A DNA stretch of 38,125 bases, from contig QPGO01000367.1 of assembly GCA_008632985.1 (NCBI GenBank), positions 1 through 38,125 of the forward strand, in the 5' to 3' direction. A program made the position numbers and the translations under genes. Below, in pieces: positions 2,641 to 37,468 of the stretch (positions are counted from its first letter, which is position 1; each line of letters begins with the position of its first letter). Under the pieces are notes generated by a model that saw only the letters and a list, made by a program, of their open reading frames with translations, was not told the DNA's origin and ran no database searches. This DNA comes from Psammoneis japonica (lineage: Eukaryota).

Positions 2641-2919
2641 TGCACCAGTTACACAGGAGGCAAACGAAAAAATTCGGGAGCTCGCTCGTTACGAAAACAT
2701 TCGGAGTTCTGCGGGACTCAGGGATCAGTCATGGTGGCGCATTTGTCTTGTTACACGACTTGGGTCCCAAAACACGATTCGCTTTTGGAATTCCAGCGAA
2801 AGCTCGACACGACACGTCATTCAATCCACCATGATGGAGAAAAGCAAATAATGGAAGCGGCGATTGCCTCTCGCCTTAAAGCAAAAGTAAAACGACACTC
2901 AACATAAAACCATTATTTT

Positions 2920-5552: not shown

Positions 5553-8285
5553 CTAAGATAAAATGTAGTCACTCCAGTCCAACCCACTAAAAAAGCTCAC
5601 CATCAAATCACCGATACGAGGAGCATTGACAAGCTTTGATTCTGGGCAGAAATCAATTTCACCAAGTACTTCCTCAATGCAATCCCATTCATAGTCCCAA
5701 TCAAAGGCCTTTTTGACTAGTTCAGCAAAGTCTCTGAGTTGACAAGCAACTGCAATGAAATCAATCCGAATCTCACCAAATCGGTCAACATCATGTCGAA
5801 CCGCTTCGCATGCTTTCTTGATGAAGACTTCGCACTCTGTCACATCATCCCACTCTGAGTAGTCCTTGTGTAAAACTACTCTGCAGAACTGACTTAAGTC
5901 ACTTGCACGAAGCATGCACGCCATGGATCGTCTGAAAGCGGTTTGCTGGTTACGATCATTGGTGTATCGATTTCGGGACGGCTGCATCCCGTTTTTCACT
6001 TTCATGTAGTCCAGTGCAACAGACACGTCGCGAATAGAGAGGCCAGTTCCTAGAAGAAAAGTCTTGGTAAAGTCCCCCTGGGATGAACTTTTGCCTGTCA
6101 TCCAAATCCCTGGAACCTTGGAGAAGATGCGATCGAGCTTCTCCAAGAATCCAAGTCTTTCCGCTACAATGTGCCTGCATCGCAGTGCGTTGTACAAATG
6201 CAGGACTTCACGTAAGCGTCTTCGAAGGTAATAAGTCGAAAAATGCGTACCAATAGAGACAAAGTACGCGGAATATGATCCTGCCATCAATGGATTCCAA
6301 TGCGAGACAGATACGGACGTGGCGGATACAGGCGGCCACTCTGGACGAGCTTCGTGAGCGTGCATCGCAAAAAAGTTTTTCAAAAGGCTTTTGGAATATG
6401 TTTGCGACGAAAGCTGGAGTTTGTGCATGTAGGAGACAGAAGCGGATTCTGCCTTTTCTCCGAGTCTTCTAACATGACTGTTTCCTTGCAGAGCCATGAT
6501 CGAAGTGAGTAGCGCGTGAAAACCAAAAGTGATAACCATGGGAACAGGGCCACCACGGTCATTCTGAAGGTATTCAACCAAAGAATACACTAGTGGAACA
6601 ACCTGAGGTATGCATGGGTTGTCAAGAACAGGAGGCTTAACTTCATTGCTACAAGCAGCAATGAGTTCTGGTAGCACCTCTGAGACTAGGAGATGGTCAA
6701 GGTCACCACGAATCTGTCTTGCAAAGTGCGTGTCTTCGTGCCATTTAAACTCAAACGTGTTGTCGCCAGCCAAAGCAACGCTCTTACATGCCTTTGCAGT
6801 AATATTTCTCGTTGGGTGCATGTACGAGAACACCGACTGAAGAAGCTTTTGAGTGTTAAGGATACACCGTCGATTTCCAATATATTTGTAATGGTACAGA
6901 AATTCCTCCCGAATCTTGTTGGAATCTTCTTCCAGAACAACATGGCAAACATCCGTTGCAAGCTTCTCAGCCTCTTCCAGCATAGTTTCCTTTTCCCAGT
7001 TCCCGTTCGGTAGGCCAAGTTTGGAGCCAAAGGCTTTGATAGCCTTGCTAGTATCAAGGCCCTCTATGGCAAAACAAGACTCCGCCACGTCTCCAATAAG
7101 ATGGGTGAGTAAGTGTGGATGCGACTGATTTGAATAGGAAGCGACTTCAGCGTATGCCTTGGACGCAGAAAGAGCAGGAGAGACAAAGACAACCGCCACC
7201 AAGTCGTAGAAGGACCGAATGTGCGGATGCTCCAGCGTCAGTTCCGCCCAAGTCGACTTGACGCAGTCCATGCAGATGTTAGTTGTGATAGCACCCTCCA
7301 TCAAGTAGACCATTAGTTGGTCATTGTCAAAGTCTTCAATACAAACGTGTTTGATAGTATCAAATCGCTCCCGGATCACGCCCATAAGACTGTCCATTGT
7401 CTCCAAGAACGCAATGCACTGGAACCGATCGTCCGCTCGGATCAAGTCTTCTTGTTGGGACATTGACAATGGCAGAGAAGTGCTTGGTGATGCTTGAGGT
7501 GGTGATGGTGGCCTAGTCGGTGCTTCTACTGCTTCAGAATCCAGCAAGTCTTCTTGTTGGGACGTTGACAATGGCAGAGAAGTGCTTGGTGATGCTTGAG
7601 GTGGTGATGGTGGCCTAGTCGGTGCTTCTACTGCTTCAGAATCCAGCTCGCTGTAGTCGAGATTCCATACATCGTGGTGGACGTCCTTGAGAGCATCAAA
7701 ACGCCCCCCTTGTACAGCAGCATTCCTTGTCTCTGACGCTTTCCCACACCCTCGACTGTTCAAACATTGCAGCTTTTTGGCAACAGCATTGGAAATCTTG
7801 AGAACATCGCGGCAATACTCGAGCACGGATATGATGTATTGGTGCCCCTTGCAGTGGTCCCCGTGCTTGCGGGCCTGTTCTTGGCGATGACGAATACTCG
7901 TATGGAGACAATCAAAGACGGATTGGTCCACGACAATGAGTTTTGTGCGTTTGTCGCGTCGTGCTTTGCTGCTTTTCTTCGTCTCGACACGTTCGGCAAT
8001 CCTCATACTCTGTTGCAGGATCGTTTCTGCGCCACGCTTGTAATCGTCAACAGACATTAGGCGATAACCTCGAGGGAGTAATTTGGCAAGTCCATCTCGA
8101 AAGGCCTCTGTAGCCTTCTTATAGCTAGCATAGACCCCCTTTGGCTGATGCTGCTGTTGATTGGACGACGACGACTCGTTCTCTCCAAAGCCAAAGTCGA
8201 AATCTGAAGGGGCTTTGTTGCTGTTATTTCGTTGGACGGGTCGTCCATCACTTTTGGATTTCTTTCTCCTCTTTGATGTTGACAT
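5553..8285 (-). CDS. DUF6604-like domain protein, 910 aa
   Basis: Intact long ORF. The N-terminal 'YASYKKATEAF...SIRHR...GHQYIISVLE', then 'GRFDAL', 'NPLMAG' and 'LHLYNAL', resemble the eukaryotic DUF6604 family. The family call is from motif recall, not a search. Confidence 0.7.
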   Translation of the reverse strand: MSTSKRRKKSKSDGRPVQRNNSNKAPSDFDFGFGENESSSSNQQQHQPKGVYASYKKATEAFRDGLAKLLPRGYRLMSVDDYKRGAETILQQSMRIAERVETKKSSKARRDKRTKLIVVDQSVFDCLHTSIRHRQEQARKHGDHCKGHQYIISVLEYCRDVLKISNAVAKKLQCLNSRGCGKASETRNAAVQGGRFDALKDVHHDVWNLDYSELDSEAVEAPTRPPSPPQASPSTSLPLSTSQQEDLLDSEAVEAPTRPPSPPQASPSTSLPLSMSQQEDLIRADDRFQCIAFLETMDSLMGVIRERFDTIKHVCIEDFDNDQLMVYLMEGAITTNICMDCVKSTWAELTLEHPHIRSFYDLVAVVFVSPALSASKAYAEVASYSNQSHPHLLTHLIGDVAESCFAIEGLDTSKAIKAFGSKLGLPNGNWEKETMLEEAEKLATDVCHVVLEEDSNKIREEFLYHYKYIGNRRCILNTQKLLQSVFSYMHPTRNITAKACKSVALAGDNTFEFKWHEDTHFARQIRGDLDHLLVSEVLPELIAACSNEVKPPVLDNPCIPQVVPLVYSLVEYLQNDRGGPVPMVITFGFHALLTSIMALQGNSHVRRLGEKAESASVSYMHKLQLSSQTYSKSLLKNFFAMHAHEARPEWPPVSATSVSVSHWNPLMAGSYSAYFVSIGTHFSTYYLRRRLREVLHLYNALRCRHIVAERLGFLEKLDRIFSKVPGIWMTGKSSSQGDFTKTFLLGTGLSIRDVSVALDYMKVKNGMQPSRNRYTNDRNQQTAFRRSMACMLRASDLSQFCRVVLHKDYSEWDDVTECEVFIKKACEAVRHDVDRFGEIRIDFIAVACQLRDFAELVKKAFDWDYEWDCIEEVLGEIDFCPESKLVNAPRIGDLMVSFFSGLDWSDYILS
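7443..7646. repeat. In-frame 102-bp tandem duplication (34 aa) within the DUF6604-like CDS
   Basis: 7443-7544 and 7545-7646 are identical apart from one substitution (cattg/cgttg). They encode LDSEAVEAPTRPPSPPQASPSTSLPLS(T/M)SQQEDL twice. Confidence 0.97.
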
Positions 8286-8476
8286 TGAAATTGTTTGGTT
8301 CTCGTCGGCTGATCTTTAGCGGCTCGTGGCGTGCTGCATTTATCGCAACATACAGTATGATGTTGTCGATTGTGTTGAGAAAGTTGATCGTTTTCATCGC
8401 TTCATGCTTCATCGCGGTTTTGGCGCCGCATGATCTATGTAATGTCGGTGTCCATGCTGTACATGATTTCTGCACA

Positions 8477-8627
8477 GAGGCAGGGGGGNNNNNNNNNNNN
8501 NGGGGGGGGGGCAGCAAAAAAGAAAAGAAAACAAGAAGGGGCACAAAACACTGAGGCAGGGGGGGGGGCAGCAAAAAGAAAACACAACAAGAAGGGGCAA
8601 AACACAAGAGCACCACTCTGCAGGTGA
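8477..8627 (+). repeat. Two ~75-bp purine-rich direct repeats with poly-G runs; assembly gap (13 N, 8489-8501) in the first
   Basis: gaggcag(G)n cagcaaaaa..gaaaa...caagaaggggca..aaacac occurs at 8477 and 8553. Confidence 0.8.
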
Positions 8628-10950
8628 AGCAAAAAAGGGCACTTGCCAAGGATGCCAACAAGCACATTGGCAATTTTTGCATGCTGTCCACACAAAATTT
8701 GTTTCATTTTTGCACTTCTTTTTGTGTGGGCAGCAGCCAGTGGTGACCACCACACCCTGCAGACAAAGCAGCTGTCGCCTGGTGTGATTTTTCATCAGCT
8801 TGCATTTTTGCTCCAAAGCAACTGAAACATGTGCATGCAAGCAAAGCCTCCCACTCATCACAATTTTTTCTTGAACATTGGTGTGCCCCCAATGGTGGCT
8901 GAGACTCGCACAATGCAAAATTGCACAGTCTCCAAATGTGAAATCTGTGTGAGTGCAGAGCTGGCAAATGCAAAGTCCATGCAAAGCTTGCATTGTTGAA
9001 ATCTGCAAACATTCTGCACATTTGACATTTTTGCAGCCTCTGCATTTGTGGACCCTGCAAAGATTCAGCAATGAGTGGAGAAATCTGGCTGACAAATGCC
9101 GCTGTGCATCACATTTGAAAGAACATTTCCACCAAACAATGTGTCTGTTTTTTCACATTCAATCCTGAAGATTTTGTGGACAGCACAGTGAGCAACAGCA
9201 AGCACAAAATGCCACGTCAATTTTCTCTGCTGTGAGTCAGCAAGGTGCAGAGGATGGTCACACAAATTGTGCAAAACTGTGTGGTTGCTGGTTGTTGAAT
9301 CACAATGAAAACAACCCACTCAAATTTTCCATTGTGCACCCACCAGGCAGTGCTGCACAAGTTTTTTCTTTCCAGGAGTGTTTGTGCAACTGTCTGTTCA
9401 TGTCAGTGCCCAGCACATTGGCTGGCAAAAGCCCAGCTGCATGAGACCCCATGATGCAAGCTGATGACAGGATCCAAGAGGTGTGTGTGGCAACAACACC
9501 AGTGTCAAAGCACATTGAACACATGCGATGCCTCGTTCACTTGCCCTCAATCCTCCGCTGTCAAAAAAAAGCAGGTGTCAATGTTTCAAAAGGGTTGGCA
9601 TGTGAGAGTGGCTCCATTGCTGCAACAAGGCACCATCGTTGTCATGGTTTTCAAGCTCCAATGCCCAAATGCTTGCACTCCTGTTTCTTTCATCTAATTT
9701 GGAACAAGCCACACTGCACAGCCAATTGACATGATGGATGATGGGCTCTCACACACACCAGAAGCAACATGCAATGCGTGCATTTGTGTGTGTCATCTCC
9801 ATCGTGCTTTGGCCACAAACTGCAGCCAACTCTAAAACAATGGCTGTTGTTTGTGAGCTGGCATGCCACAATTGTTCCAGCAGTGCAAGTGGCAAAACTG
9901 CAATCTCATCATTTCCCACACAACTGTTGACTCACACATCAACCAAGTTCTGCCATCAGCCACCTCACACACTCCTCCTCCTGTGTTTGAGTCTGCACGG
10001 CATTCTGAAAAATCAAAGAACACACCCACACAAGAGAGAGCAGTTATTCTGCAGACATTGGCACGTCAATGATGGTGTGCGTTCTCTCTTTGCACGCCAC
10101 ACGCAGCACCAGGGTTGTTTTTTTTTTCTGCAGAGGAGAAAACACGTGGTTTTTGCAGCTGCCTCTTTTGAGCCTGAGACTGGATGCTCATCTTGCTGGC
10201 ACTGTTGGGAAGGAAGTGATTCTCCACTCTGCCGCAACTCTTCTTCCCCAAATCACCATCTTGTGAATGCCATGCTGATGTTGTTCGAGATGAAGAAAGA
10301 CCGGTTCAATTTGAATTTTTTTGTGGTCTTTGTCTGAATGTAAAGGCTCTTCATTGTGGCGCATCAATTCGAGATGTGAAAGAGGAGATGAAGTGTCTGT
10401 GCAGAACAATTGTCAACCTTGTGTCCAGCAGAACTCCAAATTCCTTCGTAACGAGCTCCCGAAATTCGGAAAGGTTCAACGAGATTTAACACAACAGGTT
10501 CAACAAGATTCAACATGACAGGACAAGTGGAGAATCTCATCTGCAGTGCAGCGAAGATGGTGCAATGTTCACCCAGGCCTGGCACTCGCACTGCACCTGA
10601 CAAGATGACAGCAAAGGAAGTGGACAAATGCATGACACCCCAATCACTGCATTGCAAATCATCTCATCTGCAGTGCAGCGAAGATGGCACAATGGTTGCC
10701 CAGGCTCAGCACTCGCACCCACAACAACACGACAGCAGAGGAGGAATGACAATGACACCGGTCCAAGGAAAGAATTGTTGCCAACGATTTCGATTCTCCG
10801 CAAAAGAATTCTGGTGTCCACGGTCAATGGATGACCCGCAAATTATGTGCGCAAACCACACCCACTTTTTTGGTTGTTTGACAGAAATCACGACAGCCAG
10901 AGGGAGTGGTGTCTGGGTTGTTTGGCAACAAAAGAGACAACAAGGTGACA

Positions 10951-13654
10951 ATGAAGTTCTCCCCTCTCTTCTCATCTGCCGTTTCAGCTGTTTGGCTCTC
11001 TGCAACCGCGGCACAGCCATGCACCTGTGAGGTGCGGCGCAGTGGTCCCTGCACAAGCGGCTGCACTGGCCTTGTGAGGACCACGGGTTTCATCACGGTT
11101 GACAAGCTTGGAATGCTGAGCGAAGCTGACTTTGTTGACTGGAAACTCACTTTTGACAGCTCAAACACTGCAAACACCATGTTGGTTCCTTCCAACAGTG
11201 AGATCTTTTTAAATCTTGGAGGTGCTGGCTCCGCAGAGGCCAGTCTTTCCAAACTGACCATCACAATTCCGCCAGATGCAAGCACATTTTCGATCAGAGA
11301 CACTGTTGATGATCCATGCCACGTCTTTTGGTGACTTCAATTGACTGAACTTGAGGTCTTAACAGGGACAAGCGAGTTCTTGACCAATGCCCCCGACAGC
11401 TCCTCTTTTGCTGACCAAGCGTTCACACAGTTCCCAACTGGTGAGCTGTTGGTGGTTGCTCTTCCCAGCACAACAACGCCAAGGTGCACTTGTGAGGTGC
11501 AGCGCAGTGGTCCCTGCACAAGCGGCTGCACTGGCATTGTGACAACCACGGGTGCCATCACGGTCAACAAGCTTGGAATGCTGAGCGAAGCGGCTGGAAA
11601 CTCACTTTTGACAGCTCAAACGCTGCAAACACCATGTTGGTTCCTCCCAACAGTGAGATCTTCTTAAATCTTGGAAGTGGCTCCGCAGAGGCCAGTCCTT
11701 CCAAACCAACCATCACAATTCTGCCAGACACAAGCATGTTTTCGATCAGAGACACCGTTGATGATCCATGCCGCGTCTTTTGGCAACTTCAATCAACTGA
11801 ACTCTCCGTCTTAACAGGTGCAAGCAAGTTTTTGACCAATGCCCCTGACAGCTCCTCTTTTGCTGACCAAGCATTCACACAGTTCCCAACTGGTGAGACA
11901 TTGGTGGTTGTTCTTTCCAGCACAACGCCGTCACCTGCTCCAGTTCCGACACCTGCTCTGATGCCGTCGCCTGCACCAGCGCCCACCCCAAGACCTGTGC
12001 CTGCTCCGATGCCGTCGCCTGCACCAGCGCCTGCCCCGAGCTCTGCGCCTGCTCCAACAGCCATTGCCCACCCCTGCTCCAACACCGTCACCTGCACCAG
12101 CGCCTGCCCGAGCCCTGCACCTTCTCTGACCCCTGCACCCATGCCATCTCCTGCGCCGAGTCCTGCACCAAGTCCAACTCCAGCACCTGCACTGAGTCCA
12201 ACACCTGTGTCAATGCCTTCACTCACCCTTCGGAAAGGCGCTTGTTGCCCACCTGCAGATTCCAACAAGTGCTGCTTCAAGGGGATGTTAGAAGAGTGCA
12301 CTCTAAATGGCAGAACATTCCAAGGCAACGGCGTTCTCTGTAGAGACGCCGTGTGCCCTGCCTTGCCTCCTACGACGTCTCCTGCTCCGGCTCCTGCCTC
12401 AGCTCCCACTGCCCCGGGTCCTGCCATGGCACCGACCACACCGTCTCCTGCCAAGCTTCCTGCCCTCTGTCACCAACAAAGTTTGATCAAAGTCCTGGTG
12501 CATGTTGCACCTTGTTTGGGGGATGCCAGTTCCTTTCACAGGAATTGTGCAAGTTGGGTTGTGGCACTTTCACTGAGCCCGGAATCAACTGCTCTGACCC
12601 AGATGTCAATTGCCCGACCAAGGGAGCTTGCTGCACGGACGATGGATGCAAGGACAGTCACTTCAAGAAGAAGTGCACCAACAAAGGTGGCGAGTTCCAA
12701 GGATTTGGTAAAAAATGTGAGCTCGGTTTGTGCCCGACTGAACCGCCAACCCCGGCTCCATCCACCCTTCCACCTGCCTCAAAGCCCACCGTCACTCCTC
12801 CTCCGACTGGAGCATGCTGCGATGTGGAAGACGATAAATGTGAGCAAACAACTGAAGAAGATTGCAGCACGGGCGTCTTCCTTGGACTTGGTGTCAAGTG
12901 CAAGCCCGGCATTTGTCCCACTGGGACTTCTCCTGGAGCGTGTTGCCTCAAATCTGGAGAGTGCCGATTCTGGTCTCAACGCACGTGCGCTGCCAACGGA
13001 AACTTCTTCTTGGGCCCTGGCACTTCCTGCAGGAATGTGGTGTGCCCAATCAAGACTCCAAGCCCAACCCCCACTCCTGCCAAGAAAGCACTCAGAGCCT
13101 GCTGCTTAGAAAGTGGTCTTTGCCGCAACCTCATTCTGGCCAATTGCTGGAAGAAGCATGGCAAGTTCATCGGTGCAGGTGCCAAGTGCACTGAGGACAA
13201 CAAATGTCCCATTGGGCCATGCGGCAAACCCGGTGCTTGTTGTCTGGTTGAGAAAAGACAGTGCAGGACTCTCCCAGAGAAGAAGCGCAAAAAGAAGGGT
13301 GGACATTTTGGGGGTGAAGGTGTCAAGTGCAGCAAGAAAACATGCCCTGCTGCACATGGTGCCTGCTGCTTGCCAAATGCAAACTGTGCAGTGTTGAAGA
13401 AGACCACTTGTGTGAAAAAGCACGGAAAGTTTGTCGGATTCGGCACCAAGTGCAAGAAGAAGACATGCGCCTCCAAGCCAGGTGCCTGTTGCTGGAAGAA
13501 TGGCAAGTGCATGATGTTCGAACAGTCCAAGTGCTGCACGCGCAGAGGCAAATTCGTGGGAGCCAGTGTCAAGTGCCGCAAGAACACATGCCCCAAGAGC
13601 CCTCATTGCAAGCAGTCTGAGTCTGAGTTTGAGATGATGCACATCTTGGTTTGA
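10951..13654 (+). pseudogene. Disrupted gene for a secreted/surface protein: signal peptide, two tandem ~150-aa domains, Pro-rich (SPAP) linker, multiple 'GACC' Cys-rich repeats
   Basis: ATG at 10951 (MKFSPLFSSAVSAVWLSATAAQP). In-frame TGA at 11332, a frameshifting deletion near 11590, and a frame change near 12470-12510. About 9 repeats of 'GACC....C....C....G.f.G.g..C....C'. Stop at 13652-13654. Confidence 0.8.
11020..11925 (+). repeat. Tandem ~465-bp domain duplication inside the Cys-rich pseudogene
   Basis: tgcac.tgtgaggtgc.gcgcagtggtccctgcacaagcggctgcactggc at 11020 and 11485. The units stay alignable to ...cagttcccaactggtgag..ttggtggttg.tctt.ccagcacaac. Confidence 0.93.
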
Positions 13655-14283
13655 CAAAAAACATGTCGTTGTGGGAAGAGTTCCCAAGACTTGTAATTCT
13701 TAGTCATTTGTTGCAATGTGATGAGCAGTGCATTTCATCTCCTTTCCATTTGATCAATGGTGCCTTGTGCTTGCAGTGTAAAACATTCTGTTGCTCTGCA
13801 TCCTTGACATGAGACAGATGGGACTGAGGATGTGAAGGGAAAAACGCTGATGAAACTGAGCCCGGTTTGTACATTGGGTCTTAGAACGCAGCTTCATTTG
13901 CAGCCCTTGCGGTGTGAGTTGGCAAGTGACCCGAGTGGCATGAAAGTTTCACCCTTCGATAAAAGCGAGACTGTTGTCCTCTCCAGCTTGCACTGCACCA
14001 TAGACCGCTGCACTCATTTTCAGTCCTGCCGCATCCCGTGTGACAACACTGCAACAAAAGCCCCTGTTCCATGCACAGCGGCATTGTCCTTTGGCTTGCA
14101 CCATTGCATTGGACTGTCACACACAATCTCAATTCTAGTCTTTCCAGCTTAAATTGACAAACAATGGCTCTGAATGTTTTCCCTTGCAATGAAAGGAGGA
14201 TTGTGGTCCTCCAATTTGTGCGGTGGACCTCTTTGCATGCAATTTCAGGCCTGTCCATTTGGTTTGAATTAACAACAAAACTG

Positions 14284-15800
14284 GACCAGCAGATGGTCAA
14301 GGTCACCATGAATCTGTCATGCAAAGTGCATGTCTTTGTGTCATTTAAATTCAAAAGTGTTGTCACCAGCCGAAGCAACGCTTGCTTGCATGCCTGCGCA
14401 ACAACATTTCTTGTTGGGTGCATGCATGAGGACACCGGCTGAAAAAGCTTTTGAGTGTTGAGGATGCACTGTGGATTTCCAATGTGTTTGCAACAACACA
14501 CAAATTCCTCCAAAATCTTGTTGGAATCTTCTTCCAGAACAACATGACAAACATCCATTGCAAGCTTCTCAGCCTCTTCCAGCATGGATTCCTTTTTTCC
14601 CAGTTCCCCTTCTGTGGGCCAAGTTTGGAGCCAAAGGCTTTGACAGCCTTGCCAGTGTCAATGCCCTCTGTGGCAAAACAAGAGTCCACCACATCGCCAA
14701 TGAAATGGGCAAGCAAGCGTGGATGCAAATGATTTGAATGGGGGGTGTGACTTTTGAACATGCTTTGGATGCAGAAAGAGCTGGAGGGACAAAGACAACT
14801 GCCGCCAAGTCATGGAATGACCAGATGTGCAGATGCTCCAGCATCAGTTCCACCCAAGTTGACTTGACGCAATCCATGCAGATTGTGTCAGCTGTGATGG
14901 CACCCTCCATCAAGCAGAGCATCAGTTGGTCATTGTCCAAGTTTTCAACACAAACGCATTTGACAGAGTCAAACCACTCCTGGATCACGCCCACCCATGA
15001 GACAGCCCACAGTCTCCAAGAACATGATGCACTGGAGCCAATTGTCTGCATGAATCAAGTGTTCTTGTTGGGATTTTGACAATGACAAAGAAGTGCTTGG
15101 TGATGCTTAAGATGGCAACAGCTGCTCAGCTGGTGCTTCTGCTGCTTCAGAATCCAGCTTGCTGTGGTCAAAATTTCAGACATTGTGGCAGACAACATCC
15201 TTGAGAGCATCAAAACGCCCCCCTTGTGCAGCAGCATTCCCTGTCTCTGATGCTTTCCCACATCCTTGGTTGTTTAAACTTCAAACATTGCATCTTTCTG
15301 GCAACGGCATTGAAAATGTTGAGAATGTTGCAGCAATGCTTGAGGACAGATGTGATGTGTTGGTGCCCCTTGCTGTGCCCCCCCTGTGCTTGCGAGCCTG
15401 TTCTTGGTGATGATGAGCACTCATGCAAAGACAATCAAAGATGGGCTGGCCCGTGACAACAAGTTTTGTGCATTTGTCATGTCATGCTTTGCTGCTTTTT
15501 GTCTTGACACACTTGGCAATCCTCACACTCTGTTGCACGACTGTTTCTGTGCCACACTTGCAATCGTCAACAGACATCAGGCAACAACCTCAAGAGGGAG
15601 CATTTTGGCAAGTCCATCTCAAAAGGCATCCACAGCCCTCTTGCAGCTGGCATGGACCCCCTTTGGTTGATGCTGTTGTTGGTCAGATGATGGCTCCTTG
15701 TTCTTGCCAAAGCCAAAGTCAACATCTGGGGCTTTGTTGTTGTTGCATTGGATTGGTCATCCATCACTTTTGAACTTCTTTTTCCTCTTTGAAGTTGGCA
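14284..15800 (-). pseudogene. 3'-truncated, frameshifted, hypermutated copy of the DUF6604-like gene (equivalent to 6685-8285)
   Basis: Residual peptides MLEEAEKLAMDVCHVVLEEDSNKILEEF, DNDQLMLCLMEGAIT and KAFGSKLG match the 910-aa protein but are spread over several frames. Tyr codons have become Cys/His codons. Confidence 0.95.
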
Positions 15801-18080
15801 TCAGCTGGCTAATGTCAGAAGATCTTTGGCAGCTTGTGGCATGCTGCATTTGTTGCAACAAAGCAATGATGTTGTCCCCATTGTGTTGGGAGTCATTGGT
15901 CACAGTTTTTGTTTCACTTCCATGGTTTTGGCATGCATGAGAGGAGGTGGGTGCATTGGCTGTGTCACATGATGTTCACACTGTTTCTTTTTTCAGAGCA
16001 GCCAGGTGAGGCAGGTGTGTGGTTGATGCTCTGATCAATTCCATCCTGTTTTGACCACCACAGCCTTGTGGGAACATCTGGGCATTCTCCAGCTCATCAC
16101 ACTCCTCTTCACACATGATTCCTGTGTGCAGAGGCAGAAAGGAAAAAAACAGCCAAAAAGAAAAGAGGGCAAGGGGGGGCAAGGATGCTGCTGCCTTTCT
16201 GAGAAAGAAAAGCTCTCTTGCTCAGGGTGCTGGTCAGCATCCTGCCAATTCTGATGTGCTGTGTGCAAAACATTCATTTTCATTTTTTGCAGTGCATTTT
16301 GTGATGAACAGCAGTCTCCTGTGCCCCCCTGCAGAGAGAGCTCAGTGCCTTTTCTGTCTTGGACTTTTTATGAGCCCACACTTTGGGCTCAAAGCAAGAG
16401 CAGAGAAGCTTGTGCACACAAGCAAAAGTGTCCCAGCTGTTGTGGTGTTTTCTCATGCATGAGTTTGCCTTTGAAGATTGCCAGCTCACAGTTGGAAATT
16501 GCACAGAGTTTGCACTTTCAAAATCTGTGCACACACTTTGTGCATTTGACAAGCTGAAATTTGAGTCTTTGCAGACTTTGCGTTTGTGATTCCACATTTT
16601 TTGCAGGCTCCACACACTCACAATTCTGTGCTTCCTGTGAGCTCTGCATTTGCAAGCTCAGTGCCAAAAATTGAGTTTTGAGCATGGAGAAACCCAGAAG
16701 ATGACAATCGCGTTGGCTTGTGCATCATTTGAAAGAACATTTCCATTGAAAAATCCATTTTTGATGCAAGCACCCAACCCTGAAAATTTTTGAATGTTGT
16801 GGTGCAAGGCTTTCCCAAGCAACACAAGCTGCCGTATGTGCCACATAAAATTTCTGCTGTGTGTTTGCATGGTGCCTGTCACAAAAATCTTTGGCTACAA
16901 AAGGATGCTCCTGGTTGGTTGAGCTGTGATGAAAACAGCGGCACACTCTTTTTTTCATTGCATTGCTTCACAAATCCTTTCATTGACAACTGCATGAACA
17001 GCCACCAGACAATGCAGTCAAAAGTTCTCAGCTTTCACTGCTGAAAATGTCTGGGATGAAAAACCTGACTGGGTGCTGGCCTCTGTGCTCTGGGGCATGA
17101 CTGAAGTTTTCTTGGCAAGCAACAGTCCTCAACAAAGAGAGCAGCAGTCAACTCTCCATCAGCCGCTGGTGACAGATGGCACATGTGCGGCTTTACAACG
17201 AGAGCTCATGGGGCCTTCAGGCTGTTCAATCTCTTGATGTCAATTGCTTCTTTGAGCTGCAAACAGTGTGCACATGCCACCCTTGTGCCATCAAATTATG
17301 GTGACATGATGAAAGTGACCACCAGCAGGGCTTTGGCAGCAACAGCTGCTGAGCACCACAAGCAGCAATGGTGGGAGATGGTTTCTTTTGGTGTGGTGCA
17401 TGGCAACAAACATCCAAAGTGGTTGGTTGCACACATGCACATGAATCTGTCAGAGCACACTGAACATGTGCATTCATTCATTAGCTCTCAATCCTCCACT
17501 GTTGAAAAAGCCATGCTCCAACATTTCAAATGGACTTTCCCGATGCAAACAAGTGAGAGTGGCTCCATTTTGCTGTGGCAAGGCACCATTGTTGCCACAG
17601 CTGTCAAGTTCTAATCTTCACTGCTTGCACTCCTGTTTCTTTCGTCAAATTTGGAACAAACCACGCAGCACCGCTAATTGACATTACAAGCTCACACAAA
17701 TTGGAAGCAACAAGAAGCAATGCATTCGCACATGTCATCTCGATCGCACTGTAGCCACAAAACTGCAATTAAAACTCTAAAACGTTGACTATTATGTATA
17801 AATTAGTATGCAGTTGTTCCGGTAATGTACATGGTGAGACTTTTAACATCACTTCCCACGCAACACTATTGACTCACGCATCAAAAAGTCCTACTGTCAC
17901 CTTGCTCTGCGTTTTCAGTCCGTATGGCATTCTAAAGAATCAAAGAACACACACAAGAGAGTAGCACCGACATATTGACACGTCAATAAGAACATGTGTT
18001 CTCTCCTTTACGTACCACACACACACACATCACAAGAGTTGTTTCCTTTTTCTTTCTAAGGAAACACTTGGTCCGCAGCC
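14284..18080 (+). repeat. Segmental duplication, copy B
   Basis: Same anchors as copy A. It has extra segments near 15976-16110 and ~17050-17500, and only one unit of the 102-bp repeat. Confidence 0.88.
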
Positions 18081-18906
18081 AAGTCGGTCAAAAACATGTG
18101 ACCCGGGCTGTGCGTAATGCAAAAGGGGATTTTGGATTCCAAAATAACATTTTGAGGCGTCACTCCACACGCATGAAAGACGGGAACCACGTCGGGTGCC
18201 ATCAAGGTTGGTGGTGGCACGCCCCAATCCGGCTTGTGTAGATCCAAAATTCCAATCGATGCGGGACATCCAATGCAAACGGGTGCGCCGTGCGCATGGG
18301 GATAGTTGGATGTGATTTCAACCTCTTTGGAAATCCATGATGCGGGAATCAATCGCATGCTCACGACAAGATTGCCCTTGAATGTTCCGGCGGGGCGACA
18401 CGCAATGTTTGTCTTGTACATGGGAACATTCGAAGAGAGCAGTGTCCTGGGTAAAACTCCGGCTTGCTGAAGAGCATAGTCAAAGGAAAAGGAACAACCC
18501 AACAAAAAGGCAACCCCGTCTTTTGGCCAGTAGTCCTTGACATTGTAAACTTCTTTTTCTAGCGCTCCATTCTTATAAATTGCGTATCTTTTTGCAAAGA
18601 AAGTATTACAGTTCGCAACTTAGCAAAACATACGGCGGTAAAGAACAATTACAAGCATCTCCTTTTTCTTGCAATAACTACTCACTTTGGAATATCCGTC
18701 TTTAGGTCAGCATTCTTGGCAACTCTGGAATCGGGAATGCTTGTGTCGGTACAAACTTCAATCAGAGGACACGATTTTGGATTTCGTTGACAAAAGAGCA
18801 AAAAATCAAAGGCATATTCCTTGGGCAGGACCACCAAGTTGCATTGTAATTTCCCCGGACAAATCCCATTCGTCGAGCTCGTGTATTCTTCTTTTCGAAC
18901 AGACAT
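18056..18906 (-). CDS. DUF1445 family putative hydro-lyase / D-glutamate cyclase-like protein; exons 18906-18686 and 18587-18056; true start uncertain (may lie up to ~19142)
   Basis: Motifs G..Q.NLVVLP..AFDFLLFCQRNPKSCPL, DLKTDIPK|Y, FLLGCSFSFD.AL, NVPMYKTNI.CRPAG.F.G.LVVSMR, HGAPV.IG.P, PVFHACGVTPQ and ITHSPGHMFLTD. A 98-bp GT..AG intron (18685-18588) joins the two ORFs in frame. Confidence 0.9.
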
Positions 18907-19379
18907 GCGAAAGTCATGTGTATTCTTCGTAAAGTCTTCTTTTTGCTCTTGTTTATTATTATTGGTTTCTCCGTCATCATCACTCCGGTTTTCTCGATAC
19001 AGTTGTTTTGTTCTGTTTCGAACGATGCTTCTTGTTTCGTTAGCGTTAATTTCTGAATATCATAGGAACGAGTATGGGTGTTGGTTGTGACAACCTCTAC
19101 GGGAGCGTTCTCGTTCATGATATCAATCATGGGAGGCGTCATGGTATGGCAATTCTGCTTTCTAGTTGGCGTTGATTGCCAACATTGTGACAGCGAGGGA
19201 GAGAGCGTCACGGAATTCTTTCTCGCTTCTCGTCGCCACGCACTCGCCAACATTGAAATGTATACAGACATTAAAATGAAAAATGAAACATCAGCTAACG
19301 TCACAGGAAACTTAAGATTTTCGGCGGATGTGCTGTTCTGCTGTCTGTCGCATCTTTGAATGAATGATTAAATGACAGA

Positions 19380-22300
19380 TGATGTGATGTGATGGATGGT
19401 TGGGCAGGGCAATGGTTGGTGTGGTTGGTGTGGATGGATGGATGGATGGATGGATGGATGGATGGATGGATGGATGGATGGATGGATGGATGGATGGATG
19501 GATGGATGGATGGACAGATGGATGCGGAATGTGGAACATCGCTGCATGAAACAGGGGACACTCTCTGTCATGTGTTGACACATTGTGCACATGAGTGGCA
19601 GAGACAGAAAGGGAGAGGAGCTGAGCAAGAAGACAAGAAGCTCTCTCTTGTTTGACAAGACCCACCACAGCTCCTCAACAAAACAATGTCTTCAAAGAGG
19701 CTCTTCTTTTGCAGGAGCACCCAGTGCTCTCACAGCACTCAGCCCTTCTGGTGTCATGTTGATGATTGCAAGAACCTGTGCAAAGAGTTTGAGAGCACAT
19801 TCTGTGTGTTGAAGAAAAAAGCAGAGCTCTCTCGGCATCACTGACTCCAAGAACTCTGGGTTTTGTTTGGTCACAGACCATCTTCAACCAATGACGCTGT
19901 GCACTGTGCATGAAGGGCAGAGGGTTCTGCACCCCAGACCCACATTGTCTCTGCAAAAGTGCAGAGAGCTCCATGCCTGTCTGGTGTGGAAAAGCTGCAA
20001 ATGTGAAGCACCCTTTCAGAACAACTGCTTCTGCTGTTTCTGGAGATCTCTGTCAAAATTGCCCATCCATGGCATGGACAGATCATTGAATTTCACATGC
20101 CTGGCACAGTCATGGAACATCCACTCATGGATCAGCCCAGAGAAAAGCAAGAGAGAAAGAAGTCACATTTTGTGAACAAGAGGGGCTGGCTCCAGCTCAA
20201 AACATCCACCTCACAACCCAAGTCACAACATCTGGCCTCAGCAAGACAGATTCAAACAAAGCTTGAAATTGCCCTTGTCAGTGTGCAAGGAAGGTCTAAC
20301 ACTTGGTGCCAGGTTTCCTTCCTCAAGCAGTGAGAAAAAACAACAGCAAAAATGGGGTCAAACGAAAGTGCCCCCCAGCAGCTTGTGAGATTGTTGCAAT
20401 CCTCATGGGCCCAACTGGGGGCTTGATGCTCTGTCCAATCAAGGAAATTACAGGTGGTGTTTCTTTGACAGTCTCTTTGATCCCAACCTGTCTCATCATG
20501 ATGTTTGCATTTCCAAAGCTCCACACCCATGTTGGGTCTGAGGCAAAAGCTCCCTCTCACTTGTTGCTGCTGGGCCTCAGAAAAGCAACAGCTCAACATG
20601 TGACCAGCCTCTGGAGAAGAAAGCCAGTCATGCCCAAGTGAAACAAGATCTTTTGTCCCACCATCACAGCTTCAACAGACCTCAGACAAGTTGAAGATGA
20701 CTGAGTGTGCACAGCATGATGAAAAGATTGTTGTTGTCCAGTGCACCTGTTGGGTTCTGTCTGTTCTTTTGGCTCTTCTCCCAGAAATTGGATTTGTCAG
20801 CACGTGACACTTGCCTGTCAACTTGCAACTGTGGAGGCTGCTCCTCCCAACCACCCATCATGTGGGACAAAGAGAGACATCTTCCAGGTTCTTGGGAGCC
20901 TCCCATCCAAGAATCTTCCCTTCAGCTGCTCTTCAAAGATGTGAATCCCTCAATGACCCCTGTTTCTAAGAGCATGGGCAATGAGCTGGAGTCATCCAAT
21001 GCTTGATGGTGCTTTTTTTGCTGTTTCTCTAGCTGCAAAGGCACCAACAATTTGTGGCATGGATTTCTTGATGTCATGTTCTCTTCTTGACCCTGAAGCA
21101 TGAAGCTGGCACGGGCAAGTTCTTTGAAATCTTTGTGGGTGGGCACCAGGAGCACCTCTTGCTGCAGGGCAATGCAGCTCTGGTTGTTCTGCAACCATGT
21201 GGTGACAACACAGCATTTGCAGTGCCAGCACTTTGGACACCCCAAGCTGCTTCTTTCAGATTGTCAATCAATTGTGCCCATTGCCAGGGCACCTCCTGTG
21301 TGATTTTCAGTTTGTGGCAGCTTGATCTGCATGATTCAGAGCATGAGTTGCACCAAGTGCCCAGCAAGGCTGAACTTTGCTTGAGAATGAGCTGTTGTCA
21401 ATGACCAGCATTGTCATTGCTGGCTCCCCAAAGGAACACTTTGCAATGTCTTAAAAAAATTCTGCACCACCACTTGCTGCAAAATGCTCTGTCAACATCC
21501 ACAAAGACACAAAATGCTGCAGCTTTGCAGTGTCTTGAGAGTTGCTCTCAAGGAAATGAGCTTCTTCTGCCAAGACAATCACAACAGCAATGCTCTCTCC
21601 TGCCAAAACCCTTGTCAACCCTTGTCAGCTCTCAAGCATGGATTCCTGAGCACTGTCAAAATGATGATGATCACTGCCACCTGAACAAGTCTTGAGCCAC
21701 TTGTGGAGCAGCAGCACATGGGGTTTGACTGTCAAATTTCCATTTGCAGCACCCAATTTCCAGCAACCTTCTTTTTCAACAACACATGCTGTCCAGCATG
21801 CCTGTGTTTCACAAGCCTCACAAACCTGGCAGGTCTGACAAAATGCCACTTGGTCAACTCTCAAGAGCTGGGGGTCCACAAACTTGAGCAAGATGATGTT
21901 GAGGGGCTGCAGCGAATGTTGTGTCACCCTTGTCAGCATTGTTCTACATTTGCACTGTTGTCTTGCCAGCAGTTGAAGTCAGCAGTCTGCTTGGAACAAA
22001 AAAAGGTTGCACTCTGCAATGAGCTGGAGAAAGCAAGAATTAAAGAGTGGCCAGCTTTTAGAAGACCAGCTGTTGCCTGTTTTCAAAACCCAGGTTTGCA
22101 GCCAGTGGGCACACAATGGATTCTCCAGTTGGTGCCATTGATTGAGCATCGTTTTGAGAGACAGCACTTGCACTGGTTTGCTTTTGCTGGCTCCAACTCT
22201 GACATCCAGATTCACAAGCTGCTGCAATGAAGCCAGATGGTCATGAGTGCTGGGAAGTGCATTTGGACTGTGCTGATGACACTCTGATTGTGCCACACCA

Positions 22301-22960
22301 AGGCAAGTGGCTGTTGGGAAACAAGCCAGCACAAGCAAGAAGATCAAGCCTGTCACAGTGAGGGTGAGCACTAAAATGGCATTTGGGTGCAAGAAGATCC
22401 AGTTGAAAGATGGGCACATTGTCTGGGACAGTTCTTCAACACATTGTGTGTGAAGAGTGCATCAAGAGATGGTCAAAGAGATGCTGGTGGAGAACAAAAA
22501 AGACCAAGTGCTCACATCTGAGCCAGGGTCTGGTGTGGGCAGGTGTGTTGGCTCTGGTGGTCACTCCCCAGTTGTTTGTCACTGGGCAGCTGTGTGCTTC
22601 TTGGCTGCATTGGTGGAATTTTTGACAAAATGTTGAGTTTGTCTTGGCATCAGGCATGTAAAAGGTGAGACCTTTTGGATGCACAGCATCATGTGATTGT
22701 GAGCTTGAAATGACATCCTGTCCCAGGAAGGAAGGGTTTGATCTTTTACAGAGCTCCAAAAGCAGATGACTCAGTGTCCAATGATGGCACACAGATTGGG
22801 CGGAGCTTGTCTGGTCAACATGTGTGCCACCATCAGTTAAACCACAAGAACCGCTGGTGGTGGTGGCATGCTTTCTTCAATGGTGCTTCTTGTGGAGTGT
22901 GCTTCTTTCTCTTTAGCTGCTGGTTCCTCATGATGGATCTGCACTTGGAGGAACTCTTGT
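19380..22960. other. TpA- and CpG-depleted domain 3 (probable decayed transposon or gene, unidentified)
   Basis: Almost no TA or CG over ~3.6 kb, and no recognisable protein motif. Confidence 0.8.
19431..19514 (+). repeat. (TGGA)21 microsatellite
   Basis: Perfect tetranucleotide run followed by cagatggatg. Confidence 0.97.
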
Positions 22961-28218: not shown

Positions 28219-28479
28219 AACTGTAGTGTCTTGTCGAAAAGGAAAGAGGCGACCTCTACAGCATGCGGTGTTTACAGATAAGATGCCGTACTGTGCATTG
28301 GATCAGGTATTCAATACAATAGAACAAACGTAGAGCAATTCAAATTAAAAGTTTACATCATGGTTCGGAAAAAGTGCGTTGCTTGCTAAGATTTGTCCTG
28401 TGTTATCGGACGACTCCATTCTAACGATTCGGTGGCAGATGAACTGGAAATTATTGGGAGCTCTGGGCTGCTGTCAAAC

Positions 28480-30260
28480 TCTGGATGTTGGTGTGTTGTC
28501 ACGTGTTTTTGTTTTTTGCAGTGATCTGTTCAGTCGTTTCAAGGATGAGTTGAAGATTTGCTCAAGTGGGTTCAAGTGTTTCTTGGGATTTGTCTTGCAA
28601 AAGGAGCAAGCAGTGTTGCCAAGAAGAAGGACTCTGATCTGTGATCATTTGTGTTTGCATGTTTTTGTGGTGCAACAAGGGGGCGCCGTTCATTCTTGGT
28701 GTTGGCAAAGAAGACAAAGGAGTGGAGTTTGACATGGAAAAGAGAATGCATGACATGTGGTTGTTGATCCATGCACATGTGAAAGTGCTGCAGAATGAAA
28801 AATGCAATGGGCCAGAGGCACTGGTCATGTGTTCTTGCCAGCAGCACCACAAAACACAGCCTGCTTTGCACACATGATTGTGAGATTGTGTCAGCAAGCA
28901 CATGGCAATGTGGACATTTTGGCTTTGAGCTGCAAGGTGTCATGGGCTGCAACATTTTTTTGCACAGATGACAAACATTGAGGGAAAGGAAAGCTCTGCA
29001 AGCTTCAGTTTGGCACCTCCTCTTGTGCCTTTGAAAATTTGCTGAGTGGCCAGCTGTGAATGACAAGCTCACTTGCCACTTGGAAAATGACAACATTTCA
29101 GTCCTTTCTTTCCACTCTGGCTTTCAATGTTGAAGATCTGTGACACATTGCTGACACCTTGATTTGCACTGTTCTTGCAGCTGGTGCCAACCCAGGGCTG
29201 TGGACAAAGCTTGCCTTGCACATTGTGCTCACACAGTTTGACCTCAAATCAATGTGCAATGCAAGAGAGCTGTGACAATGAGTGCTGGCACCTGCTTGAG
29301 ATTGTGGCACCAAACTCAACGCCCCAAAACAGTTGCCGTGCCAAACTTTTTGCCAAAGTCTCTTGTGAGGACAATCTTTTTCTGCCAGGGCTGTGGAAGG
29401 TGTCAAAGTTGTTTTGCCATTGAAGTTTTTGGAGCCCCACAAGTGCTGTTTTTCTCCTTTCCTCTTTCTTGTCATTTGTGTGGAAGACATGATGATGCAC
29501 ATTTTGCCCTCTTGCTGGCTCAAAGAAATGACATGACATTGCACACACTGTGCCATTTTCTGCTGGTGGTTTTGCAGCACACACAATGGGCTGTGGCAAC
29601 AGCAACATGGTCAGTGACACTGTGCTCTTTTTCAATCACAAATGCTTGTGTGTGTGTGGACAAAAATCCCAGTGTGTTTTTCTCCTTGTCTCAAGAAGTG
29701 CCCAGCCCCTTTTTTCTTTGAGGGAGTGAGTGGGGCAAACTGCGCCAGATGCTGCAGTGGACATCCATGGGAGGGACACAGTCTTGTGACTGTCCCAACA
29801 TGCAGCAGGGTAGAAATTGGCCAATGGAGGAGTGGAGGTGTGGGCAAAGATGTCGACAACATTTTGCTGTGCACGCAGGAGGGGGGGGGACGACCAGCAA
29901 AACACAACAACAACCACAAACCTCCAATCTCAAGCAAATTTTGGAGTGATTGCACCCAAATGAAAGTGAAGTGGATCCAATGGACATGAGGTGCTTGAAG
30001 GCACATGTGCAGGCAATGCTGTGCCAGGAGCTGGAAGGCCGCCCAGCGCATCAGCGCCCTGAGGTGACTGAGTTGTGTGTGTGAGGCAAGAGGTCACAGC
30101 ATCAAAAGCCGCCACCACATGCACAGCTTGGCAAAAATGTCATCCAAACCCTGTCCCCCACAAGAATGCAATGGCAGAAAAGGCTTGGACCAGGCTGATG
30201 GCACAGCAGTGGCTGCGCAATTCAAAAACACAGGGTTTTGTGGTTGGCTGACAAAAAAGC
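28480..30260. other. TpA- and CpG-depleted domain 4, between the sulfotransferase-like and LicD genes
   Basis: Loss of TA/CG after ~28480, with an abrupt return at ~30270 (taataatgat). Confidence 0.8.
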
Positions 30261-32752: not shown

Positions 32753-33603
32753 GCATTTTCGTAATCACTGACGGTGCCCAACTAGAATACAGATGAGCTC
32801 AGTCCTCGCTACTCTAGTTGTGTGGTTAAGAAGCAGTGACTTGCTTTCATACTTGCCTTCACACTTGCACACCATAAAACTCTCTACTTTAGCGAGAGTA
32901 GCGTAGAGGGTACCGTACGAGATGAGAGAGACCTTTGGACACAACGGGTTAAGGGGGTCCCAGTCCTAGAATTTCTTCATACGAGATTATGCTGCTTTGT
33001 TCTACTAATAGAAGTAGCATGGACGAGGAGCGGATCTTGCTTGCTTAGCGAGCTTAGCTTGCTAGCTAGAGAGTACGGTAGGTGTTGGCACGGTTCTGGG
33101 GGAAGTCTCCAGCCAGCTGCTGGCTGAAGAATCTTGTGTAGTCTAGAATAGAATTTGCACCGAAAGAGTCTGTCAATCTGTGCGTTGGGGGGGTTGGTGA
33201 ACGCTGGACAGACTCGTCGTCTGTTATGTGCGTAAAAATTGTGCCGGCAAAACCCCCAAATGCACTGAAGCTGGCTGGCTGGCCAGCTGGCTGACGGACG
33301 CCTCTTCAGCGAAGAACAGCAACACATGCATGGACATCACGCACTGTGCCTGTGCCTCGCTTGACACCCCTTTTGCTCATTCACATGGCAGAGTCGGGGC
33401 TTGCACAACACAAGAAGGTGGAGCAAGGGACAACAACTTTTCCCACTGGCCCAGCATGTTCCAACCCCAGGCAGGGCTTGACATGACACGAGCCCACAGA
33501 ATTCTTTGTGTGAGCACCACAGTTTGTGCATTGGGTGACAAGCATGTTCGTCTTTGACACCCAAAAATGAGCGACCAATGTTTTGCAGCACAGCTGCACC
33601 ATG

Positions 33604-33636
33604 CCCCCCCCCCCCCCCCCCCCACACACACACACA
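33604..33636 (+). repeat. Poly-C run followed by (CA)n
   Basis: About 20 C followed by acacacacacaca. Confidence 0.9.
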
Positions 33637-36600: not shown

Positions 36601-37447
36601 GTGGACACCACACACATCATGCTGTTGAGGGACTTGGCTGGGTGGCAGATTGTTGTCTTGGGCACTTTGTCACTTTGTCAGCAGCACCAGACAGAGTGCA
36701 ACAACACCAGTGCATGGCAGTGCTTGTTTGAGTCTCTGGCATTCTCAGCCACAAACCACCAATTGCATCTGCAACATCTCATCCAGCAGTCCATTTTTGC
36801 TCATCATGGTGGGGTTTGGCAAAGGTGAGTCATGCAAGTGTCCTTGATGGAAAGGTTGCTCAACAGGACCACAAGGGCAAGCTCTCTGCAGCATGGCAAA
36901 AAGTGGAGTGCCAAATGCTTCTGACCCAAACATGGCCCAGGTGTGAGACTCAACAGAACAGGCAGCAGCTGTGAGTGCCTTGTGTCACACGCATTCAAAG
37001 AATGGAGACCATGACACCAGAAACATGGCTCCACACACCTGCAGCACTCAGCAACTCAGCTGTGCTGTGACTCTGGTGGGTGGTGCTCTTTGCAAAAATT
37101 GCATTTTCTGATCCAACATGTGACCTCAGCTCCCAGTTGAGGTGACAACACTTGCCATTGTCACACTTGCATTGGTGTGAAAAGCATTGAGAGAAAATGA
37201 TCAACTCCCATTTGGGTGGCCAGAAATCTCCTGCACCTCAAGCATGCTGCTGCAGCCAAGTGCCACTCTGATGCATTGCACATGGGCGGGTAGAACTTCA
37301 CTTCTTCCAAATCAAGCTTCAAAAGAACAAGCACCCAGCGTGCATCAACCACATTTCTTGGCAGGACTTGGAGGTGTTAATTTGGACAGCGCCACTTGTG
37401 TGATTTGTTGATGCAAAGAGGGTCAATGGCGATGCTCACCAGCACAT

Positions 37448-37468
37448 TCTCTCTCTCTCTCTCTCTCT
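37448..37468 (+). repeat. (TC)n microsatellite
   Basis: tctctctctctctctctctct. Confidence 0.9.

Follow-up and report, generated by a model that had tools for sequence, protein, structure and literature searches.

What decides whether a piece of DNA keeps or loses its CpG and TpA dinucleotides? The question is raised by a 38,125-nt stretch of the diatom Psammoneis japonica (contig QPGO01000367.1; the whole stretch is called the window below), in which a segment that includes part of a DUF6604 gene occurs twice. In each copy a different part has lost most of its CG and TA steps to TG and CA. An earlier examination of the bare letters, which we call the sequence-only reading, had proposed that mutation in this duplication follows position and not repeat status. 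Alignment of the two copies agrees with this proposal, as the polarity of conversion flips along the one duplicated segment.

Opposite fates of the two copies of one segment

Two kinds of DNA make up the window, at a G+C content of ca. 47% throughout. Measured in 1-kb steps, the normal stretches have observed/expected (o/e) ratios of ca. 0.8-1.2 for CG, 0.5-0.8 for TA and 1.0-1.3 for TG/CA, whereas those of the converted stretches are 0.00-0.17, 0.01-0.13 and 1.8-2.06, respectively. Domains were called by two-state hidden Markov model segmentation on pyrimidine-purine (YR) steps, which assigned 17536 nt, or 46% of the window, to converted segments. The duplication is a single collinear segment, the copies of which lie 4.1 kb apart:

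6684-10150 (3.5 kb), copy A: left part up to 8460 unconverted, right part from 8462 converted
14284-18072, copy B: left and middle parts up to 17605 converted, right end from 17612 unconverted
8488-8501, assembly gap of 14 N in copy A: within a poly-G tract, 28 nt from the left edge

Three stretches were matched by blastn: 6684-7545 with 14284-15158 (83.0% over 875 columns), 7545-8380 with 15056-15891 (78.7% over 853 columns) and 9503-10129 with 17448-18053 (68.1% over 653 columns). The middle is also homologous: A 8502-9480 and B 15892-17420 align semi-globally with a score of 92.5, whereas 43 control alignments to other converted DNA averaged 3.5 and never exceeded 13, and the best local alignment there pairs A 8572-9438 with B 16154-17033. 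Homology stops at ca. 10150/18072, ca. 15 nt into the coding sequence (CDS) of a D-glutamate cyclase gene; no remnant of the cyclase CDS was detected by tblastn next to copy A.

In the left part (A 6684-8380), the 85 CG steps of copy A read TG at 36 and CA at 32 positions of copy B, with 8 staying CG, and its 55 TA steps read TG at 26 and CA at 24, with 1 staying TA and 4 others. In the reverse direction, 7 of the 237 TG/CA steps of A are CG/TA in B. The left polarity is 118 changes from CG/TA in A to TG/CA in B versus 7 opposite ones (binomial p = 4e-27). The opposite polarity holds for the right part (A 9670-10150, B 17612-18072), with 4 versus 22 (p = 5e-4). Both copies are converted in the adjoining stretch (A 9480-9669, B 17420-17611), which has 3 versus 1 polarized changes and 34 steps that are TG/CA in both. 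The loss of TA and CG is not evenly split between the copies but flips from one to the other, and each copy keeps what appears to be the ancestral state of the other's mutated half, as the sequence-only reading had held; the two strings that it quoted are present at ca. 17788 and ca. 9843. In the middle part, where both copies are converted, 158 aligned YR steps are the same and 13 discordant (TG versus CA), which suggests that the spacer may already have been largely converted before the duplication.

Differences other than conversions amount to 137 of 1578 aligned columns in the left part, where one copy is constrained; for the right, the figures are 71 of 433 and 38 of 182. The extent of this divergence argues that the duplication is old and that the edges have long been held. 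Two small repeats lie within the segment. A 102-nt tandem duplication at 7443-7647 (99% identical) in the live DUF6604 gene repeats a Ser/Pro-rich peptide; copy B has one unit, so the second was gained in A after the segmental duplication or lost in B. The N gap is followed immediately by a 56-nt tandem repeat (8503-8606) with many G and A runs; its counterpart in copy B, at 16141-16188, has diverged to 60% identity.

Domain edges lie a few hundred nucleotides from genes

One edge cuts copy A and another cuts copy B:

8446-8462, left edge: last CG at 8446, last TA at 8460, next CG or TA step a CG at 8776
17605-17643, right edge: switch at 17605/17612 by TA and at 17634/17643 by CG segmentation

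The left edge had been predicted at 8460, exactly where the last TA is found. The right edge had been placed at 17680 and needs to be moved ca. 70 nt to the left: few CG/TA steps occur up to 17541, and from 17612 onward they are dense. Across the window, the converted segments given by the two-state segmentation are:

1747-2496, between the FG-GAP/Kelch open reading frame (ORF) and the ABC1 kinase ORF
8462-10282
10490-10710
12449-12611
13011-13833
14039-17605
19373-22958, with 11 CG + 13 TA among 833 YR steps
28455-30252, with 15 CG + 1 TA among 444 YR steps
33317-38123, to the window end, with 17 CG + 10 TA among 1144 YR steps

Segmentation on TA only yields five intervals with sharp edges and 3.6-4.3 TA/kb inside versus 36.6-49.2 outside. 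The same nine outer edges are obtained from CG only and TA only, agreeing within ca. 12-125 nt, and every one of them lies 175-561 nt past the start or stop of the nearest long ORF:

1743, 388 nt from the stop of the FG-GAP/Kelch ORF
2498, 422 nt from the ABC1 ATG
8460, 175 nt from the DUF6604 ATG
17612, 444 nt from the cyclase stop
19369, 463 nt from the cyclase ATG
22967, 321 nt from the end of the exostosin ORF
28452, 237 nt from the end of an unnamed ORF
30260, 223 nt from the ATG of an unnamed ORF
33310, 561 nt from the end of an unnamed ORF

ORFs of 80-540 aa overlap one another in all six frames of 8400-17600, 19400-22900 and 33300-38100, because TA is missing on both strands and with it TAA and TAG (TTA and CTA on the other strand). 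Pfam was scanned with 24 ORFs of 150 aa or more from converted or interior DNA; none has a family over the cut-off, and the one match, to SIP1 at E 0.008, was sub-threshold. A (TGGA)n microsatellite of ca. 25 units at 19415-19530 begins 42 nt within the converted domain at the upstream edge of the cyclase gene.

The flanking genes have transcript-like contigs

The genes that bear on the two edges of the duplication, and the non-coding stretch that is spared, are as follows:

5553-8315, minus strand, DUF6604 gene: intact 920-aa stop-to-stop ORF, first ATG at 8285, Pfam PF20253 (E 8.5e-09), in a normal domain
14284-15825, minus strand, DUF6604 pseudogene: residues 1-544 of 920 in three different frames (tblastn)
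18059-18906, minus strand, D-glutamate cyclase (DUF1445) CDS: 250 aa in two exons, PF07286 (E 1.6e-56)
17612-18055, minus strand, spared non-coding stretch downstream of the cyclase stop: 444 nt with 15 CG + 24 TA

Among named relatives, a DUF6604 protein of Seminavis robusta is the best match to the DUF6604 ORF (42% identity, E 1e-206). Contigs were available from two runs on one sample, X1 and X2, the latter recorded only as 'DNA?'. X2 contigs cover the DUF6604 side in pieces (6000-8328) and the cyclase side at 17817-19176, where a joint that skips 18588-18685 occurs only in X2; the skipped 98 nt read CT..AC on the plus strand, which is GT..AG on the gene strand, and the spliced CDS is in frame. 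An X1 contig runs straight through this intron. The domain had been described as bounded by expressed genes, and both flanking genes do have such cDNA-like contigs; three edges (8460, 17612 and 19369) lie 132, 205 and 193 nt beyond the X2 contig ends at 8328, 17817 and 19176. X2 has no contigs on 8682-13151 or 14046-17621, which we do not take as evidence of silence.

The spared right stretch is non-coding, as had been claimed, but it is not an inert flank, because at least 17817-18055 is part of a spliced transcript-like contig and therefore of a transcription unit. At least this portion is probably the transcribed 3' untranslated region (UTR) of the cyclase gene; no poly(A) signal (AATAAA/TATAAA) was found on the minus strand of 17501-18060. 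Further left, the ABC1 kinase ORF (2908-4827) has best matches at 70-73% identity, and every named relative is a diatom among the at least 120 matches listed.

Conversion is strand-symmetric and appears recent

Conversions in the left part of the duplication are distributed evenly over the two strands (TA to TG 26 versus CA 24; CG to TG 36 versus CA 32), and runs tests were not significant: the 118 events form 64 runs versus 59.9 expected, CG events 37 versus 34.9, and TA events 22 versus 26.0 (P = 0.15). Strand-clustered, processive conversion was rejected by these tests. The pattern speaks for independent single-site events on double-stranded DNA; strand symmetry and the lack of runs together speak against processive one-strand editing and against editing of an RNA intermediate. 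Because 1 of 55 TA and 8 of 85 CG steps survive in copy B, both steps would, as a rough estimate, decay tens of times faster than background, with TA decaying at least as fast as CG.

A comparison of the window with the contigs listed 29 single-letter differences, indel rows being left out of the count. All nine differences to X1 at 7047-12214 and 15305-16940 are transitions between CG/TA and TG/CA. Another 14 lie at 12636-13565, a multi-copy region where contigs of other copies are included; the context was checked for two, and both are CG to TG. In the normal domain at 18336-19264, none of five differences is of this kind, and a sixth row, at 19264, removes a TA by transversion. Since the assembly may have been built from X1, these differences represent variation within the sample and not an independent strain. 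They make conversion look recent or ongoing, and are at most an indirect hint of a raised de novo rate.

Within copy B, the window and X1 differ solely at CG/TA versus TG/CA sites, at 15305, 16127, 16897, 16917 and 16940. The unconverted state is in the window at three of the five sites and in the contig at two, and because it is split in this way, the sample seems to contain two sequence variants that convert independently.

The interior of the large domain keeps part of its CpG

Between the two edges of the duplication, TpA and CpG differ in the extent of their loss:

8462-17605, TpA-erased domain: 4.3 TA/kb versus 36.6-49.2 in normal domains, with 39 TA among 2049 non-CG YR steps
10286-14037, domain interior between the copies: 127 CG versus 22 TA

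The sequence-only reading had described one contiguous domain. This is correct for TpA (8462-17605) but not for CpG, which the CG-only segmentation finds partly kept at 10286-10480, 10714-12997, 13423-13577 and 13845-14037. The interior may be younger, less methylated or refreshed from paralogues.

The interior has several repeats of its own. A Pro/Ala/Ser-rich tract precedes a Cys-rich ORF at 12344-13654, in which GACC...C...C...CP units recur. Of the 45 distant relatives of this ORF, which share 26-39% identity with it, the few with names come from bacteria (Eisenbacteria, Phycisphaerae). In X1 contigs, word depth reaches 122-333 at 12258-13598, which is 2 to 5 times single-copy, so this region is part of a multi-copy family in the genome. 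A tandem duplication of ca. 455 nt at 11020-11926 is 88% identical, and 8 of its 43 mismatches are conversions between CG/TA and TG/CA. Of two normal-looking islands, the one at 13845-14037 lies directly left of copy B and has CG/TA at 14 of 48 YR steps. The other, at 10286-10487, holds the second arm (10417-10456) of a 40-nt inverted repeat with 83% complementarity, the first arm of which is at 2684-2723; X1 contigs end loosely at 10415 and 10457, which marks it as a short dispersed repeat.

Comparison with known systems

The closest precedent comes from Bigelowiella natans, in which integrated viral DNA undergoes regional TpA-to-TpG/CpA hypermutation (Mettrop et al., bioRxiv 10.64898/2026.01.13.699255, 2026 preprint). 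In mutation-accumulation lines of that organism, two viral insertions had 231 mutations, of which 230 were A-to-G or T-to-C and every one of these fell on a TpA; mutation ran at ca. 1000 times background, and an ADAT2-like adenine deaminase was proposed (10.64898/2026.01.13.699255). As in the parts of that report available to us, transitions at TpA in P. japonica give TpG or CpA depending on the strand (26 and 24 of 55), and they are confined to discrete intervals, the trace of which is TpA depletion with CpA+TpG excess in clusters of sequence windows. The two cases differ in host, B. natans being a chlorarachniophyte and P. japonica a stramenopile, and in the depth of the depletion, which is far greater here, with a TA o/e of 0.01-0.13 versus a Rho of 0.45 reported for the nucleocytoplasmic large DNA virus (NCLDV) region of B. 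natans. CpG is erased in the same intervals here, whereas the available text of the preprint mentions neither CpG nor diatoms. The targets here are not viral or transposon DNA alone but include a duplicated piece of a host gene and the 3' flank of another, which are the best-documented ones. Among the ORFs scanned, no viral- or transposon-type Pfam family was found in converted DNA; an ORF of the interior has distant relatives, the few named of which are bacterial. A further difference is the share affected, ca. 46% of this window. In a search of full-text literature, which leaves subscription journals uncovered, the B. natans preprint was the only report of TpA-to-TpG/CpA conversion, with none for diatoms.

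The CpG component resembles the decay of methylated DNA in that CG gives TG/CA (68 of 85) in non-genic intervals with sharp edges. It departs from plain CpG decay in that TpA is lost as well, and in that CpG o/e falls to 0.00-0.1, as extreme as the TpA loss and with common edges. In published work, 5-methylcytosine (5mC) is described as limited to transposable elements in Phaeodactylum tricornutum, and in diatoms it is said to mark silent DNA and to co-localize with heterochromatin marks (PMC12344493). The CpG loss fits the decay of methylated silent DNA of this type.

The B. natans authors also name a resemblance to ADAR-type editing in the portion of their text available (10.64898/2026.01.13.699255). 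The likeness consists of A-to-G changes favoring a 5' U/T neighbor. It does not extend to the strands, which are hit equally (26 versus 24) and without clusters, and the DNA is an in-place segmental duplicate and not a retro-copy. ADAR-like editing of an RNA intermediate was rejected, as strand-specific clusters were not found.

A region-set process would explain the reciprocal pattern

We consider it probable that the window is a mosaic in which transcription units are spared while the DNA between them is erased of CpG and TpA by processes whose access is set by region, and that the tandem duplication happens to be cut by the edges of this mosaic. Transcription units with margins of ca. 150-560 nt would keep a normal dinucleotide make-up. 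Elsewhere, CpG would be turned into TpG/CpA, most likely through deamination of 5mC in silent methylated DNA, and TpA into TpG/CpA through A:T to G:C changes of the B. natans kind, which are ascribed there to adenine deamination in DNA. Both processes would act in the same intervals, on a random strand and one site at a time. Since CpG and TpA loss stop within ca. 125 nt of each other at the edges, access would be set by region, presumably by active versus silent chromatin, and not by sequence, copy number or coding status.

The history of the locus can be reconstructed tentatively on these terms. The ancestral order would have been DUF6604, an intergenic spacer and the cyclase gene, all on the minus strand. 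A tandem duplication would have included the 5' part of DUF6604, the spacer and the cyclase 3' flank; the copies are now separated by other DNA. In copy A, the left half would have stayed joined to the 3' part of DUF6604, and in copy B the right end to the cyclase gene, each being spared within a transcription unit. The orphaned inner halves would then have joined the silent interval and been converted; the pattern would be reciprocal because the tandem duplication left these inner halves without their genes. The chromatin and methylation state, the enzymes and the order of events are all deduced from sequence.

Several points weigh against this explanation. The polarity was read from domain-wide composition and not from an ancestor, there being two copies and no outgroup. 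Silent chromatin is itself read from the DNA letters alone, and the cDNA-like nature of X2 is deduced from one spliced contig. The N gap by the left edge is unbridged among the X1 contigs listed, in which pieces end at 8488 and resume at 8559; the join across it rests on the same left, middle and right order of homology that is found in the contiguous copy B. The interior keeps CpG at about half the normal level with ca. 84% of TpA gone, which makes the two processes separable and leaves one common trigger unproven, and the two small normal-looking islands (10286-10487 and 13845-14037) lie inside the domain. Finally, 79 metagenome loci with ABC1 relatives (406 kb, mostly short and genic) were found with alignment A1, a scan with the ABC1 protein alone having given no relative, and only one of them has a converted-like segment of at least 400 nt. 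That locus (L071, 26% identity) has 0 TA but 12 CG over 660 nt and is a doubtful case. The pattern is not general among the relatives sampled, although short genic contigs say little either way.

Alternative explanations

The first alternative is a homology-triggered process like RIP (repeat-induced point mutation), whereby duplication would mark DNA for mutation and transcription would protect the part kept in a gene. RIP occurs in ascomycete fungi before meiosis, acts via RID-type methyltransferases and strikes both copies of a repeat. The resemblance is real: transitions in a dinucleotide context affect duplicated or selfish DNA and leave dead gene copies, the two converted halves that were compared are both duplicated, word depth shows part of the interior to be multi-copy, and the B. 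natans authors, in the text available, themselves liken their process to RIP. RIP, however, turns CpA into TpA and thereby enriches TpA (PMC2621366, PMC7882544, as far as these were available), whereas here TpA is destroyed, with 50 of the 55 TA steps of copy A reading TG/CA in B. The chemistry is opposite, and RIP, which had served as the yardstick in the sequence-only reading, is not a suitable one. Moreover, each duplicated part is struck in one copy only, by position and with opposite polarity (118 versus 7; 4 versus 22); on these two grounds identity with RIP was rejected. The converted DNA at 8682-12257 and 13599-17621 has a single-copy word depth of 56-82 (at a likeness of at least 90%), and the converted segments at 19373-22958, 28455-30252 and 33317-38123 have no partner within the window. 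Converted DNA may still consist of aged, degraded repeats whose partners lie in other parts of the genome. We regard a RIP-like trigger as unlikely.

A second alternative is that foreign DNA arrived poor in CpG and TpA and that silencing spread outward from it, so that the composition is partly inherited. The distant relatives of the Cys-rich ORF at 12344-13654, of which the few named are bacterial, would fit such an origin, as would the report, in the text available, that the B. natans process acts on viral insertions. The comparison of the paralogues, however, shows a host-gene copy and a host 3' flank converted in place, and the 24 long ORFs without a Pfam family above the cut-off do not help a foreign source. 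We regard this as quite unlikely.

A third is a genome-wide pressure of mutation on CpG and TpA, under which functional DNA looks spared because selection purges the changes. It has in its favor that the spared halves belong to live genes and the converted halves are functionless. The test is the non-coding DNA. In normal domains, CG and TA account for 0.386 of YR steps in ORFs with family or homologue support (8268 nt) and for 0.401 outside ORFs (3778 nt), that is in UTR-like flanks, intron and spacers, compared to 0.035 in converted domains (16329 nt). The 98-nt cyclase intron stands at 0.478 and the 444-nt stretch at 17612-18055 at 0.325. Moreover, the DUF6604 gene of copy A has CG/TA in each of the three codon phases, as often across codon boundaries (49 CG + 38 TA with their first base at codon position 3) as within codons, and site-by-site selection on hundreds of non-coding dinucleotides is implausible. 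Thus, the state is a property of the region and not of the coding sequence, and protein-level selection does not explain the sparing, as the sequence-only reading had concluded; this alternative is very improbable.

An artefact (haplotypes turned into a duplication by the assembly, an incorrect join across the N gap or misread modified bases) is hardly credible, since against the unbridged 14-N gap 28 nt from the left edge and the possibility that X1 is the assembly's own data, so that its agreement is not independent, stand copies that differ by 17-32% with indels and frameshifts, far beyond allelic divergence, a word depth of both copies equal to single-copy flanks (58-65 in X1 contigs), by which they are not haplotypes assembled twice, one X1 contig (15198-19400) that spans copy B and the right edge, the same order and spacing of left, middle and right homology in both copies, and frameshifts and 137 non-YR mismatches in 1578 columns that misreading of bases would not create.

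What the locus means

With the region-set process as the favored explanation, this case would extend a recently described regional hypermutation to a new lineage, a greater depth, a coupling to CpG loss with common edges, a host target and a larger affected share. Nature has run a controlled experiment in this duplication, through which two edges cut: the same sequence in two contexts has met opposite fates. It separates sequence identity from location, which the B. natans report, as far as available, could not do, its targets being viral insertions. The edges at 8460 and ca. 17610 are precise landmarks for mapping methylomes and transcript ends.

If the explanation is true, TpA-directed hypermutation would not be confined to one chlorarachniophyte but would also occur in diatoms, which are major primary producers. 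Edges held in common with CpG loss would point to silent methylated chromatin as the guide and as the place to seek the enzymes. DNA without CG and TA would also mislead gene finders, methylation estimates from CpG o/e and the dating of divergence.

More broadly, and tentatively, diatoms, and with Bigelowiella perhaps much of the stramenopile, alveolate and rhizarian (SAR) assemblage, might possess a chromatin-guided DNA-editing defense that erases CpG and TpA, the two self-complementary pyrimidine-purine steps, outside active transcription units. We consider this possible but doubtful at present. Were it true, both activities would be recruited by the same silent-chromatin signal, and gene fragments, insertions and orphaned flanks would be irreversibly scrambled on an evolutionary time scale, while genes a few hundred bases away would stay untouched.

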